64,000 nucleotides of DNA from Staphylococcus phage vB_StaM_PB50, in sequence record OR770614.1. One strand, given 5' to 3'. The notes beneath the pieces were generated by a model. It was not told the DNA's origin. It did not search any database and saw nothing but the letters and a program-made list of their open reading frames with translations. A program made the position numbers and the translations under genes. Shown in pieces: positions 45,679-51,982 of the stretch. How positions within the stretch are numbered: position 1 is the first letter of the stretch; the number at the start of each line of letters is the position of its first letter.

Positions 45679-46074
45679 TTAATAAATATAATCTTCGATA
45701 TCAATTTCATTTTGTTTAATTGTCATATCATGGAAAGACTTCATGGAGCTTGTTACAATTGCTTGAGCTACCTGATTGACTAATAAACCAATATTTTCAA
45801 TACCTAATTTGTAAGGTAATTCTCCTGCACATTTACTACAAATATCTTCACTCGCACAATACATAGGACTTCTGAAGTTCAATACTTTCTCAATATACTC
45901 ATCTACATTTTCAGGAGTTAATAATATTAATTGACCTTTTCTTCCTGAAGTATTTTCAAAATATCTATAAAGTAAAAGACTTGCATTATCTTTAGTTAAA
46001 GTTAATTTTAATGTATGTTTTGTTCTACAATCAGAACCTTGTTTATCTAATACAGTTGTTTGGAAAGCGGACAT
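45679..46074 (-). CDS. RNA polymerase beta-prime fragment (trigger-loop/region G segment). Downstream piece of a split or interrupted beta-prime C-terminal gene.
   Basis: RSPMYCASEDICSKCAGELPYKLGIENIGLLVNQVAQAIVTSSMKSFHD aligns with E. coli beta-prime [54 protein letters not shown]. SDCRT aligns with DCGT. There is no SD before its ATG. Confidence 0.7.
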   Translation of the reverse strand: MSAFQTTVLDKQGSDCRTKHTLKLTLTKDNASLLLYRYFENTSGRKGQLILLTPENVDEYIEKVLNFRSPMYCASEDICSKCAGELPYKLGIENIGLLVNQVAQAIVTSSMKSFHDMTIKQNEIDIEDYIY

Positions 46075-46115
46075 AAGTTTTTTAGCTTGATCATTTTATT
46101 ATCTATATTTTACTA

Positions 46116-46215
46116 TAGATTAGACTATATCTTATGAATTTAATCATTTCTATATTTAGTCGTTGGACAACTTTATTAAGTTGATGCTAGTTAGTTTTAA
46201 CATTCTAGCAATTAA
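46116..46215 (-). other. Conserved structured intervening element, copy 3 (IVS3), between the two beta-prime ORF fragments. Intron-like or recoding element.
   Basis: The minus strand reads TTAATTGCTAG..CTAGCATC, the hairpin CAACTTaataAAGTTG, TCCAACGACTAAATA, a hairpin, then GATATAGTCTAATCTA. It shares blocks with the two copies in the beta gene, with compensatory stem changes. Confidence 0.6.
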
Positions 46216-46239
46216 TAGAATTTATTGTGAGCATCTAAT

Positions 46240-47055
46240 TTACCCACCTTCTTGAGTACCTAAAGCACGTCCAGCTGAACCAGCTGTCATAATATCACCA
46301 AACATATATAATTCTTCTGGATCAATTCCATCAGCTAAAGAACTCTTAGCAATACGTATTTTACTAGGATCAGCAAAATTTTTATTTGCTCCACGAATAA
46401 GAGCTGTTAATTTAAAGTTATTTTCAAAACTACCTCTTGATTTACTATCATAAATATCAAGATCTGCTAAACCTTCTAATTCTTCCTTACTTAACTTAAT
46501 TAATTCTTCTTCAATAGCACTAATAGCATTCAATTCTTCACCAGGAGTATTTAATGCTTTACCGTATTTCTCTAGTAATTCTTCTTTCTTTTGTTTAACT
46601 TTATCTGGAGCAACCATCATTGTAGTTGTTAAGCTAGAATTAATAAATCCTGCTATAGAGAAACCAAGCCATTGAAGTTTATCAATATACATATTCATAT
46701 CTTTAGTTGTAATAACGTCATTAAGTAATAAACTAGATAGTTCAGATTGTAGATTTCCTACACCTGATCCTCCCATATCTTTATTCATATATCCTATAAT
46801 AGGTCCTATTTTATTGTCTAATATAAATTTATTAAATATATATCTTCCAACTGTTGTTCTTTCATCTTTACTATTATAAACTAAATCTTTTTTAAGTTTA
46901 AATCTATCGCTAGGGTTAAACATTGGTTGTGTATTTTGTCTAAATGCAAATAATTCTTTAAGTTTATCAAGAGTAATATCTTCTTTTTTTATACTTAATA
47001 AAGTTGATATTTCTTTCTCAGATAAATCTTTTTTATCATAAGTCATATTAACCAA
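46240..47055 (-). CDS. RNA polymerase beta-prime C-terminal-half fragment (bridge-helix region).
   Basis: RGANKNFADPSKIRIAKSSLADGI...DIMTAGSAGRALGTQEGG aligns with the beta-prime bridge helix [26 protein letters not shown]. TTG start after SD GAAAGAAGTGA. An AACA-N6-TAT motif at 47088-47100 (minus) lies upstream. Confidence 0.65.
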   Translation of the reverse strand: MVNMTYDKKDLSEKEISTLLSIKKEDITLDKLKELFAFRQNTQPMFNPSDRFKLKKDLVYNSKDERTTVGRYIFNKFILDNKIGPIIGYMNKDMGGSGVGNLQSELSSLLLNDVITTKDMNMYIDKLQWLGFSIAGFINSSLTTTMMVAPDKVKQKKEELLEKYGKALNTPGEELNAISAIEEELIKLSKEELEGLADLDIYDSKSRGSFENNFKLTALIRGANKNFADPSKIRIAKSSLADGIDPEELYMFGDIMTAGSAGRALGTQEGG

Positions 47056-47371
47056 TTTAATTTCACTTCTTTCATATATTATTTGTAATATTTGAATGTT
47101 ATCATCAATTTTATATTTTTGTAATTTATAAAATTATCTCATAAAAAATTTGAAAACCTCCGGAATATTATATTTATATAATAATATAATTATTATAATA
47201 TATTAAAATATAAAATATTTTAATATATAAAAAATATAATATTAGAGGGGGTATATTTAGATTTTGATATAATCAAAATCTAATAAATTATTTCTCCTTA
47301 AATTACATAAAAAAGATAAAGAAAACAAGTACATATATAAAATTTATTAAATGAAAGGAATTGAATAATAA
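47056..47371. promoter_or_regulatory. Divergent control region between the beta-prime (minus) and beta (plus) genes.
   Basis: Contains a roughly 75-nt pure A/T tract (47180-47250), a perfect palindrome AGATTTTGATataaTCAAAATCT (47259-47281), and AACA-N6-TAT motifs facing each gene (47088-47100 on minus, 47324-47336 on plus). Confidence 0.5.
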
Positions 47372-50488: not shown

Positions 50489-50582
50489 TTGCTGAAATTA
50501 CTTTAAAGTTAATCAGCATCAATCAAATTGTTCAACGACTAAATAATAGTTACTAATTATATAATTAGTAATGATATAGTCT
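50485..50582 (+). other. Conserved structured intervening element, copy 1 (IVS1).
   Basis: TTAATTGCTGA..TCAGCATC stem, hairpin CAATcaaATTG, TTCAACGACTAAATA, hairpin TTACTAATTatatAATTAGTAA, then GATATAGTCT. It starts exactly at the stop codon (ATT TAA TTG CTG A). Confidence 0.6.
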
Positions 50583-50587
50583 CAACT

Positions 50588-51091
50588 ATGTATAAAGTAT
50601 ATAGAAATAAGATAATGTCTCCACGTATTGGAATGACTGGTACTCAAGCCAAGCACGTAATTCCAACAAAAACTAATAGTAAACCATTAGTTGGATCTGG
50701 TGTTGATAAATCTTTAGCTTATCAATTATCAGATACATTTGCTTTTAAAGCTAAGCAAGATGGTAAAGTATTAAAAATTAATGAGAAAACTGGTTTAATG
50801 ACAGTGGAATATATCAATGGTGAAAAAGATATTGTTGATATATCTGAAAAATTAGCCAAAAACTCTAACTCAGGTTTTTATCAATCTAATAAACTTGATC
50901 CACAATTTAACGTAGACGACACTTTTAATAAAGGTCAAATACTTGCTAAAAATAATAATTTCTTTGCTGGATCTGGTAAAAATAATGATATTCAATTCAC
51001 TTCAGGTAAATTATCTAAAGTATCTGTAGCTAGCTCATATGGTATTATAAATGCCTTTCATTATAGTAATGTAATGTCAAAAAATTATTAA
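50588..51091 (+). CDS. RNA polymerase beta fragment 2 (167 aa).
   Basis: RIGMTGTQAKHVIPTKTNSKPLVGSGVDKSLA...AFKAKQDGKVLKIN aligns with E. coli beta [30 protein letters not shown]...AVAKRGGVVQYVD. There is no SD before the ATG. The first 10 codons probably belong to the intervening element. Confidence 0.65.
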   Translation: MYKVYRNKIMSPRIGMTGTQAKHVIPTKTNSKPLVGSGVDKSLAYQLSDTFAFKAKQDGKVLKINEKTGLMTVEYINGEKDIVDISEKLAKNSNSGFYQSNKLDPQFNVDDTFNKGQILAKNNNFFAGSGKNNDIQFTSGKLSKVSVASSYGIINAFHYSNVMSKNY

Positions 51092-51194
51092 TTGCTGAGA
51101 AATATTAAATTAATCAGCATCTCTATATTTATAGAGTTCAACGACTAAATATAATTATTCATTAATGCTAATGAATTTGATATAGTCTAATCTA
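51088..51194 (+). other. Conserved structured intervening element, copy 2 (IVS2).
   Basis: TTAATTGCTGAG..TCAGCATC, hairpin CTCTATAtttaTAGAG, TTCAACGACTAAATA, hairpin TTCATTAatgcTAATGAA, then GATATAGTCTAATCTA. It again begins at the stop codon (TAT TAA TTG CTG A). Confidence 0.6.
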
Positions 51195-51220
51195 TTATAA
51201 AAATATAATAGCTAATATAA

Positions 51221-51982
51221 ATGACTTATGAAGATAGTTCTATTATTTCTAGTAGTATGTCTGAAGCAATGTCTACTAAAGTTACTATGAAGAAAACAGT
51301 AAATATTCCATCAAACACAAATATTCAATATATAGTTAAAGAAGGTCAGAAAGTACGTACAGGAGATCCTTTAATGATATTTGAAACTTCATTCGATGAA
51401 GAAGGTATTGGTTCTTTATTAGATAAAATTGGTAGTGAATTTGAACAAGATATTCAAGATATAGCTAACCGAGCTGTTAGAAGTAAATATACAGGTAATA
51501 TTAAAAAGATTAATATTTATTATAATGATGATATTGAAAATATGACTGATAGTTTAGCTAAATTAGTTAATAATTACATTAAAAAATCAAATGATAAATA
51601 TAAAGAATATAAATCTGGAATTAAAAATAATAAAGAAACTTTACCTGGTATTGATGTAGATATCGCTGCAGTTGATAAAATTAATACAGAGAAAATTAAA
51701 GGGGAAAAAGTTGACGGAGTTCTTATTGAAATCTTCACTGAGTATGAAGATGATATGAGTGTTGGAGATAAAATTAGTTTCTATGGAGCTTGTAAAACTG
51801 TAGTTGCTGATGTAACTCCTCCAAATGAATCTCCTTATGCAGAATATAGACCTGATGAGGAAATCGAAGCTGTATTCTCTCCATTAAGTATTGTCTCTCG
51901 TATGACAGTTGATATTTACATGATGCTATTTACAAATAAAGCTTTAATAGAATTAAAACGTAAAGTAAAAGATATGATTTAA
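51221..51982 (+). CDS. RNA polymerase beta fragment 3 (253 aa).
   Basis: N-terminal YEDSSIISS aligns with the beta motif FEDSILVSE. GDKISFYGACKTVVADVTPPNESPYAEYRPDEEIEAVFSPLSIVSRMT aligns with [46 protein letters not shown]. There is no SD before the ATG. Confidence 0.7.
   Translation: MTYEDSSIISSSMSEAMSTKVTMKKTVNIPSNTNIQYIVKEGQKVRTGDPLMIFETSFDEEGIGSLLDKIGSEFEQDIQDIANRAVRSKYTGNIKKINIYYNDDIENMTDSLAKLVNNYIKKSNDKYKEYKSGIKNNKETLPGIDVDIAAVDKINTEKIKGEKVDGVLIEIFTEYEDDMSVGDKISFYGACKTVVADVTPPNESPYAEYRPDEEIEAVFSPLSIVSRMTVDIYMMLFTNKALIELKRKVKDMI

Follow-up and report, generated by a model that had tools for sequence, protein, structure and literature searches.

Two divergent virion RNA polymerase genes with unusually small group I-type introns very probably account for five open reading frames of Staphylococcus phage vB_StaM_PB50

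Staphylococcus jumbo phages related to AR9 encode a virion and a non-virion RNA polymerase (RNAP), and many of the subunit genes are disrupted by introns (Korn et al., bioRxiv 10.1101/2020.12.14.422802); the part of the preprint text that was available does not contain the term "group I" and leaves the intron type unstated. In phage phiKZ, the beta subunit of the virion RNAP is gp178, whose gene is needed for producing infectious virions; in phage phiPA3 the protein gp210 is a nicking HNH endonuclease active in phage competition (Birkholz et al. 2024, PMC11620839). We analyzed a stretch of 64,000 nucleotides (nt) from Staphylococcus phage vB_StaM_PB50 (sequence record OR770614.1), hereafter the window, in which positions 45679 to 51982 hold five open reading frames (ORFs). 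These ORFs are very probably the exons of two divergent virion RNAP genes carrying group I-type introns. Both genes are annotated, likewise divergent and in the same neighbourhood, in Staphylococcus phage Machias as gp170 ("viral RNA polymerase beta subunit") and gp171 ("beta-prime subunit, mid-domain"), and Machias differs from the window in the intron complement of both. Since the RNAP assignment and the intron disruption are already published, the biology of the region is known, encountered here in a new phage closely related to Machias.

Two of the ORFs lie on the minus strand, one of 131 amino acids (aa) at 45679-46074, carrying RSPMYCASEDICSKCAG, and one of 271 aa at 46240-47055, carrying RGANKNFADPS. 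The other three lie on the plus strand and encode 1038 aa (47372-50488, carrying PDSNKIGVVRQLSYNSLI), 167 aa (50588-51091) and 253 aa (51221-51982, carrying GDK and SPLSIVSRM). A first-pass annotation of this DNA had listed these ORFs and peptide motifs, all of which we found where it had placed them, and had interpreted the ORFs as split-subunit genes, each encoding only part of a subunit. The interpretation was not borne out, because the breaks between ORFs are introns, located within the bridge helix and next to acidic residues of the active site, that are exactly absent from phage DC4. Three introns interrupt two genes, and the five-ORF pattern therefore does not represent five separate subunit genes. 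In DC4 (~81% nucleotide identity), both genes are uninterrupted, with lengths of 1227 nt (408 codons) and 4254 nt (1417 codons). Alignment of the window with DC4 left gaps of exactly 150 nt (46241-46092), 165 nt (50453-50617) and 180 nt (51044-51223), and removal of these three gaps gave in-frame products of 408 aa (beta') and 1421 aa (beta). The Madawaska phage offers a second comparison. Its beta' gene is also uninterrupted, with 408 codons, and reads GTQEGGYQAKQLMSAF / ...GTQEGGYQAKQLMSAFQ... across the junction; its beta gene has a single interruption, and the second exon runs continuously over the site of the second beta intron (SSYGTYEDSS). Madawaska thus likewise lacks the beta' intron and beta intron 2. 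Both genes are annotated as joined exons in Machias (gp170, gp171).

These alleles establish the gene structure and the intron boundaries. The gene for the middle part of beta' (minus strand) starts with TTG at 47055; its exon 1 (46242-47055) ends in ...GTQEGG plus T, the first base of a Tyr codon, at a junction defined by the intronless Madawaska and DC4 alleles. The 150-nt intron (46092-46241) lies within the codons of the bridge helix, and exon 2 (45679-46091) starts with AT-CAA (..Y QAKKLMSAFQ..) and closes with a TAA stop. A divergent, AT-rich intergenic region of 316 bp (47056-47371) separates this gene from the large beta gene on the plus strand. Exon 1 of the latter (47372-50452, aa 1-1027) has a GTG start, contains the region-D-like motif SPDSNKIGVVRQLS and ends in ...SRHAD. 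Intron 1 (50453-50617, 165 nt) follows the Asp equivalent to D675 of Escherichia coli beta. Exon 2 (50618-51043, aa 1028-1169) spans SPRIGMTGTQAKH...ASSYG and aligns with "ANRALMG..QRQAVP" of bacterial beta; intron 2 (51044-51223, 180 nt), which has a P2 hairpin, stands just before the TYEDSS motif. Exon 3 (51224-51982, aa 1170-1421) carries GDK...K and SPLSIVSRM and matches the Pfam family RNA_pol_Rpb2_6.

Searches with the spliced products returned uninterrupted homology. The beta protein matched phrog_3148 (E 5.7e-186; positions 92-1419 of 1424) and phrog_14872 (E 8.6e-194; positions 251-1390 of 1393), each in one stretch, and the beta' protein matched phrog_2962 in the same manner (E 4.3e-76; positions 41-432 of 433); these PHROGs carry the label "RNA polymerase beta subunit". 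Alignments with bacterial beta and beta' also cross the junctions unbroken, including HAD|SPRIGMTGTQAKH and the bridge helix. When the ORFs were searched separately against Pfam, only the last one gave a match, to RNA_pol_Rpb2_6 (PF00562; 34.4 bits against a cut-off of 23.4, E 1.7e-8), which was found again on the spliced C-terminal part; fragmentation thus hides the homology of the other ORFs. In phmmer searches of the PDB, the beta'-middle protein aligned to residues 563-904 of a bacterial beta' of 1188 aa (E 3e-6) and the beta protein to residues 697-820 and 1090-1172 of bacterial beta (E 3e-5); the matches were to bacterial subunits only, with no AR9 or phiKZ RNAP chains among them.

Some motif labels had to be moved. 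RGANKNF, previously called the bridge helix, aligns with the bacterial "MRGLMA" segment just upstream of that helix; the true bridge helix is GSAGRALGTQEGG|YQAKKLMSAFQ, split by the beta' intron, with GSAGRALGTQEGGYQAKKLMSAFQ as its bacterial counterpart. The segment labelled as the trigger loop (RSPMYC..CSKCAG) aligns to the one preceding it; judged by eye, NIGLLVNQVAQAIVTSSMKSFH at the end of the beta' gene is probably the first half of the loop itself. As for the motif "GDK..G..G.KG", GDK itself is present, and the full form is replaced by GDKISFYGACKT. The TYEDSS motif presumably corresponds to the bacterial GYNFEDS. Taken as wholes, the beta'-middle protein includes the bridge helix together with the beginning of the trigger loop and lacks the N-terminal catalytic half and the C-terminal end of beta', and the large beta protein extends as far as the PSRM motif in Rpb2 domain 6, domain 7 being absent. 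The claim that fragments of a non-canonical multisubunit RNAP are encoded here is upheld, with a beta' gene that covers only the middle of the subunit and a beta gene that ends after Rpb2 domain 6. Residues 1-500 of beta, in which Pfam finds no domain, belong to a phage-specific N-terminal extension and are homologous to that of the AR9 protein. An HD domain has been reported for the virion RNAPs of Bacillus phages; Pfam finds none in the window protein or in its AR9 orthologue, and a review assigns the Bacillus-phage HD domain to the other (C-terminal) beta fragment.

Orthology to virion RNAP subunits is established by several comparisons. The AR9 orthologues YP_009283168 (beta') and YP_009283093 (beta) are annotated as virion RNAP subunits. 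The DC4 orthologue of beta, UFVDC4_00067, has been detected in virions by liquid chromatography-mass spectrometry. It is 80.5% identical in amino acid sequence to the window protein. In a tblastn search, 301 jumbo-phage records matched, with one beta orthologue in each genome; among them were AR9 (45% identity) and phiPA3 (gp211/209), whose record notes similarity to phiKZ gp178. By analogy with these orthologues, the large beta product of the window would be packaged in the virion. The complementary beta and beta' fragments, for which a search of the rest of the genome had been proposed, are present in the 98%-identical Machias genome, and the window contains none of them. According to the Machias annotation, the virion partners are gp239 (the other beta fragment), gp117 (beta'-N) and gp083 (beta'-C), and the non-virion set consists of gp001, gp002, gp266, gp192 and, probably, gp144, which the record describes only as "beta' subunit". 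The AR9-type split of the subunits is thus real, in addition to the interruption of the genes by introns.

The labels of the beta fragments are in conflict among records, as the same gene is called "beta C-terminal" in Machias (gp170) and "beta N-terminus" in the AR9 RefSeq entry (YP_009283093). The last exon of Machias gp239, a protein labelled "beta N-terminal" in its record, shows a weak Pfam match to Rpb2_7 (E 0.012, under the cut-off), and a phmmer search with an 86-aa piece of gp239, aimed at a beta C-terminal domain, returned nothing relevant. We favour the AR9 label because the sole Rpb2_7-like signal, weak as it is, lies in gp239, and because of the placement of the HD domain in the review. 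In Machias, two tandem mini-introns (locus L006, 2790-3170) directly follow the annotated end of gp002 (non-virion beta'-N, 373 aa). As the DC4 orthologue has 436 aa, gp002 is probably truncated in the annotation and continues past these two unannotated introns.

The three intervening sequences, whose GC content is 0.20-0.29, share the features of group I introns. In each case the 5' exon ends in U and the intron ends in G, the 3' ends being ...AAAATG, ...ATAATG and ...AAATG. Unconstrained minimum free energy (MFE) folds placed a P1 helix over each 5' splice site as defined by DC4, with a U.G pair exactly at the site. In the beta' intron, P1 pairs the exon sequence GUGGGU with GCUCAC (MFE z = -2.9); in beta intron 1, GCCGAU pairs with GUCGGC (MFE z = -3.7); the MFE of beta intron 2 also had z = -3.7. 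An alternative 5' splice site of beta intron 1 at 50455|50456 was rejected, as both the P1 pairing and the DC4 allele place it at 50452|50453. Four segments of the intron core are nearly invariant (UAAUUGCUG, AUCAGCAUC, UUCAACGACUAAAU and GAUAUAGUCU), and the core common to the three introns can be written as UAAUUGCU(G/A), (A/C)U(C/U)AGCAUC, U(U/C)CAACGACUAAAU and GAUAUAGUCU. For the 180-nt copy, we drew a group I fold with P1, P2, P3-P9 and a P3/P7 pseudoknot. Two segments, "CAACGACUAAAU" (J6/7-P7-J7/3) and "GAUAUAGUC" (J8/7-P7'), are similar to their Tetrahymena equivalents, "CAGACUAAAU" and "AAGAUAUAGUC". The introns, of 150-180 nt, contain no ORF and hence no candidate maturase ORF. From sequence, we consider these elements to be group I-type introns that lack ORFs and are unusually small.

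Comparative evidence for this architecture came from a covariance model, R1, built from a single copy (beta intron 2, 180 nt) and searched with filters off. In the 64-kb window, R1 returned exactly three matches: beta intron 2 itself (213 bits), the beta' intron (63.8 bits, E 6e-10) and beta intron 1 (60.1 bits, E 2.9e-9); the next match had an E value of 0.41. In the complete Machias genome, the model found 29 matches. Across the resulting 32 copies (3 from the window and 29 from Machias), 94.5% of cells were paired and compensatory changes occurred in 42 of 48 pairs. The covariation score was 0.531, compared with 0.146 in shuffles (0 of 500 as high) and at most 0.085 in slid controls. P1, whose exon bases differ from one insertion site to another, was paired in 92.4% of cells, and all six of its pairs showed compensatory changes; P3, P4, P5, P6, P8 and P9 were 84-100% paired, and the P7 strands were complementary in 29 of the 30-31 copies that had both strands. 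RNAalifold, making its own prediction on the model-fitted alignment, recovered P3, P4, P6, P8 and P9. The group I architecture is thus established with covariation. Beta intron 2 is 98.3% identical to its Machias and AH12 copies. Matches to TTCAACGACTAAAT with one or two mismatches at 6291-6304 (minus strand) and 24589-24602 (plus strand) were attributed to chance, as they lie in coding sequence, are accompanied by no other core elements and received no R1 hit.

The compact introns are not confined to Staphylococcus phages, since they were also found in IMG/VR contigs. The core motif AACGACTAAAT..GATATAGTCT occurred in at least 120 stretches of viral contigs, and R1 identified 16 full-length elements of 160-210 nt (E < 1e-3) in contigs of uncultivated phages, most of which are 200-400 kb long (loci L024, L027, L028, L041, L042, L048, L049, L050, L054, L059, L071 and L088).

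We propose that the two genes are divergently transcribed from the 316-bp spacer (47056-47371), which presumably holds the promoters of both. By analogy with AR9, both would probably be expressed late, by the non-virion RNAP. Each intron would fold into P1, an optional P2 and P3-P9 with the P3/P7 pseudoknot, its internal guide pairing with the last 3-6 exon bases so that a U.G wobble marks the 5' splice site. That site would be attacked by a guanosine occupying P7, and the freed exon would then attack after the terminal G and be ligated in frame to the next exon. The products, of 46 kDa and ~163 kDa, would join beta'-N, beta'-C and beta-C fragments encoded elsewhere in an enzyme of five polypeptides, which would be packaged into virions and transcribe early genes on injection.

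Several points weigh against this interpretation. Splicing of the three introns is inferred from the sequence. No obvious pairs of GNRA tetraloops and receptors were seen when the introns were read by eye, and their autonomous folding and catalysis are uncertain because at 150-180 nt, without obvious GNRA contacts, they fall under the 205 nt of the Azoarcus intron. The alignment behind the covariation counts was itself fitted to model R1, and the pairing of P7 lacks covariation support because P7 is invariant. The partner subunit genes were seen in Machias only, outside the window. Finally, Rfam RF00028 (Intron_gpI) gave no match at the gathering score in the whole window, nor at E <= 10 in 45600-52000; these runs returned three tRNA hits and chance-level matches, with no intron family among them. 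The authors of the DC4 report likewise listed no Rfam introns in that phage. We attribute the RF00028 miss to the model's limited reach for very short AT-rich introns and do not count it against the fold.

Among other explanations, the one that survives best holds that the introns derive from group I introns and have lost autonomy, so that they require a phage or host protein cofactor, or splice inefficiently and thereby regulate the production of the virion RNAP. They are 150-180 nt long, very AT-rich and poor in peripheral elements, the Rfam model is blind to them, and according to the literature minimal group I introns need compact tertiary contacts, most others using peripheral elements or protein cofactors. 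Against this, conservation and covariation extend over the whole catalytic core and every core helix in ~30 copies, as selection for a ribozyme would produce, and the introns contain no candidate maturase ORF. We regard a loss of autonomy as unlikely. A bolder proposal is that the 150-180-nt elements and their ~30 relatives per genome are autonomous self-splicing ribozymes smaller than the Azoarcus intron. They would form an ORF-less family unseen by current group I models and may spread, or persist, by sitting in the target sites of nucleases that are free-standing or IStron-borne, thus providing immunity at RNAP active-site codons, one of them the site of phiPA3 gp210. We put this forward tentatively, as a possibility that is somewhat doubtful as a whole.

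Much less probable is that the five ORFs are translated separately, as the result of gene fission beyond the splits known from AR9 and phiKZ, and that the five polypeptides assemble into the enzyme. Each ORF is open, all have ATG starts apart from the TTG and GTG starts of the two genes, and RNAP subunits of jumbo phages are known to be split into several genes. However, the breaks would cut the bridge helix and the H-x-D|x-x-R loop of the active site, and the ORF ends and starts at the breaks are intron-encoded tails (..DQTWIVGLKTI, ..IINAFHYSNVMSKNY) without counterpart in homologues. No Shine-Dalgarno sequence was seen by eye before the internal ATGs, and the intervening DNA, besides being exactly absent from DC4, carries the covarying group I fold. 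Decay into pseudogenes or errors of assembly, for which nothing speaks beyond the stops between ORFs, can practically be dismissed, as the independently sequenced Machias, AH12 and Madawaska carry these introns at matching sites, the exons are in frame and conserved, and the virion RNAP beta gene is needed for infectious phiKZ virions. The interpretation that remains by far the best supported is that of two intron-bearing virion RNAP genes.

Comparison of these two genes among phages showed that insertion sites are partly shared and that intron content varies. At the site of beta intron 1, the window reads HAD|SPR, phiPA3 NDD|.KR and Serratia phage 2050HW YDD|SPKR, with the intron at the same codon position; the 2050HW intron at this D675-equivalent site bears an endonuclease. 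Beta intron 2 lies one residue before the TYEDSS motif, and the beta' intron splits the bridge helix. The window has beta introns after aa 1027 and 1169 and one beta' intron. In Machias, beta introns are found at aa ~980 (1.4 kb, with a homing endonuclease), ~1035 and 1169, and beta' has two introns in tandem with a microexon of ~16 nt between them, the second of which corresponds to the beta' intron of the window. AH12 carries beta introns at aa 1027 and ~1035 (roughly 24 nt apart) and at 1169, together with two tandem beta' introns. Madawaska has only the beta intron at aa 1027 and none in beta', DC4 has none in either gene, and AR9 has four or five beta introns at other sites and none in beta'. 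Such a distribution is consistent with elements that move or have recently been lost and whose targets are the most conserved codons. As phages that are 98% identical in the flanks differ in their introns, homing or intron loss in virion RNAP genes may be ongoing.

The AR9 beta protein (YP_009283093) is 45% identical to that of the window over 69% of the length, its N-terminal extension included in the homology, and the beta' genes share ~68% nucleotide identity. The AR9 beta gene is intron-rich like that of the window, with six joined exons, and both enzymes are of the AR9/PBS1 type. The AR9 introns lie elsewhere (~aa 950, 990, 1040 and 1117) and are GC-richer and larger, at ~290-390 nt and, for one that contains an HNH gene, 1.36 kb; R1 sees them only weakly (best E 6e-4). 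In phiPA3, gp211/gp209 belong to the same gene family (..NDD|.KRVGF.. compared with ..HAD|SPRIGM.. in the window) and the intron carries AAGATATAGTC, as the window introns do. However, this intron is ~1.3 kb long and contains gp210, whereas that of the window has 165 nt and no ORF, and the proteins are ~24% identical; R1 does not detect the phiPA3 intron. Azoarcus-type introns share with those of the window the P1-P9 helix order, the P3/P7 pseudoknot, the 5' U.G pair and the terminal G. The window introns differ from the Azoarcus pre-tRNA-Ile intron (205 nt) in being 25-55 nt shorter, very AT-rich, located in protein-coding phage genes and present in ~30 copies per genome. To our knowledge, the Azoarcus intron is usually cited as the smallest natural group I intron; a literature search gave no direct source for this.

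Several observations in this and a related genome concern candidate nucleases. A free-standing ORF of 734 aa resembling homing endonucleases (42185-44389, minus strand; phrog_3339, E 1.8e-21; Pfam DUF723 and DUF559) contains repeated zinc fingers of the DUF723 type and a DUF559/Vsr-like nuclease domain. It is located ~1.3 kb 3' of the end of the beta' gene, with a tRNA cluster in between, and AR9 also has a homing endonuclease beside the orthologous gene. Speculatively, this protein may act in trans on intron mobility or on target-site pressure. Machias carries an insertion of 1,653 bp (locus L009, 10526-12178) that is absent from the window at 5646|5647, inside the ORF 3091-9087 (minus strand); this ORF, intact in the window with 1998 aa, is split by the insertion in Machias. 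The insertion consists of a group I-like module (R1 match at 10519-10717) followed by gp208, a TnpB-like "transposase", and is thus IStron-like. Two more pairs of module and transposase are present in Machias, beside gp089 and gp224.

For annotation, the region should be regarded as two spliced genes and not as five proteins; automatic pipelines split it, as in AH12, whose annotation lists five ORFs, four of them hypothetical and one named rpoB_2. Screens based on Rfam miss these introns. The site of beta intron 1 is common to phiPA3, where the intron endonuclease decides the outcome of co-infection, and if the 150-180-nt elements self-splice, they would be a naturally compact scaffold of the group I type. 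The RNAP assignment, already published, adds little. In the literature accessible to us, we did not find the group I assignment, the size of 150-180 nt, the family of ~30 copies, its invisibility to Rfam or the site shared with phiPA3. The description of intron type, size and family is possibly, though not demonstrably, new, the literature covered not including the AR9 genome paper (Lavysh 2016).

The wider setting agrees with the assignment by the first-pass annotation to a Staphylococcus jumbo phage of the AR9/PBS1 type, which is supported by nucleotide identity to Machias, AH12 and other Staphylococcus jumbo phages. The window has a GC content of ~25%. In blastn searches, the region was 96% identical to Machias and 94.5% to AH12, and ~79-82% identical at the nucleotide level to Madawaska, S6, MarsHill, PALS2, DC4 and SA1, with weaker matches to Listeria phage LPJP1 and to the Bacillus phages AR9, PBS1 and BpSp. 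The adjoining 25 kb are collinear with Machias at 98.0% identity (AH12, 94.7%). The GroEL-like chaperonin noted earlier was confirmed at 19075-20832. A third RNAP gene of the window, missed in the first pass, lies at 21867-23612 (plus strand) and encodes a homologue of AR9 gp226, the promoter-specificity subunit of the non-virion RNAP (PDB 7S01_A, E 5.8e-40; phrog_25005, E 5.8e-52); its Machias orthologue, gp192, is annotated alike.

Just 3' of the beta' gene lies a cluster of tRNA-like genes (45027-45632, minus strand). One member is a tRNA-Asn(GTT) (45137-45208); a second, at 45561-45632, resembles a tRNA but has an abnormal anticodon loop; and a third, at 45027-45129, is a 103-nt match to the Rfam tRNA model for which ARAGORN made no call. 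Machias has two annotated counterparts, both tRNA-Asn and flagged as pseudo. Directly 3' of the beta gene, an ORF of 342 aa (52072-53100, plus strand) contains a CxxC...CxxC zinc ribbon with a weak TFIIB-type Zn-ribbon match (E 0.0036, under the cut-off); it is conserved in Machias and Madawaska, where it is annotated as a hypothetical protein.

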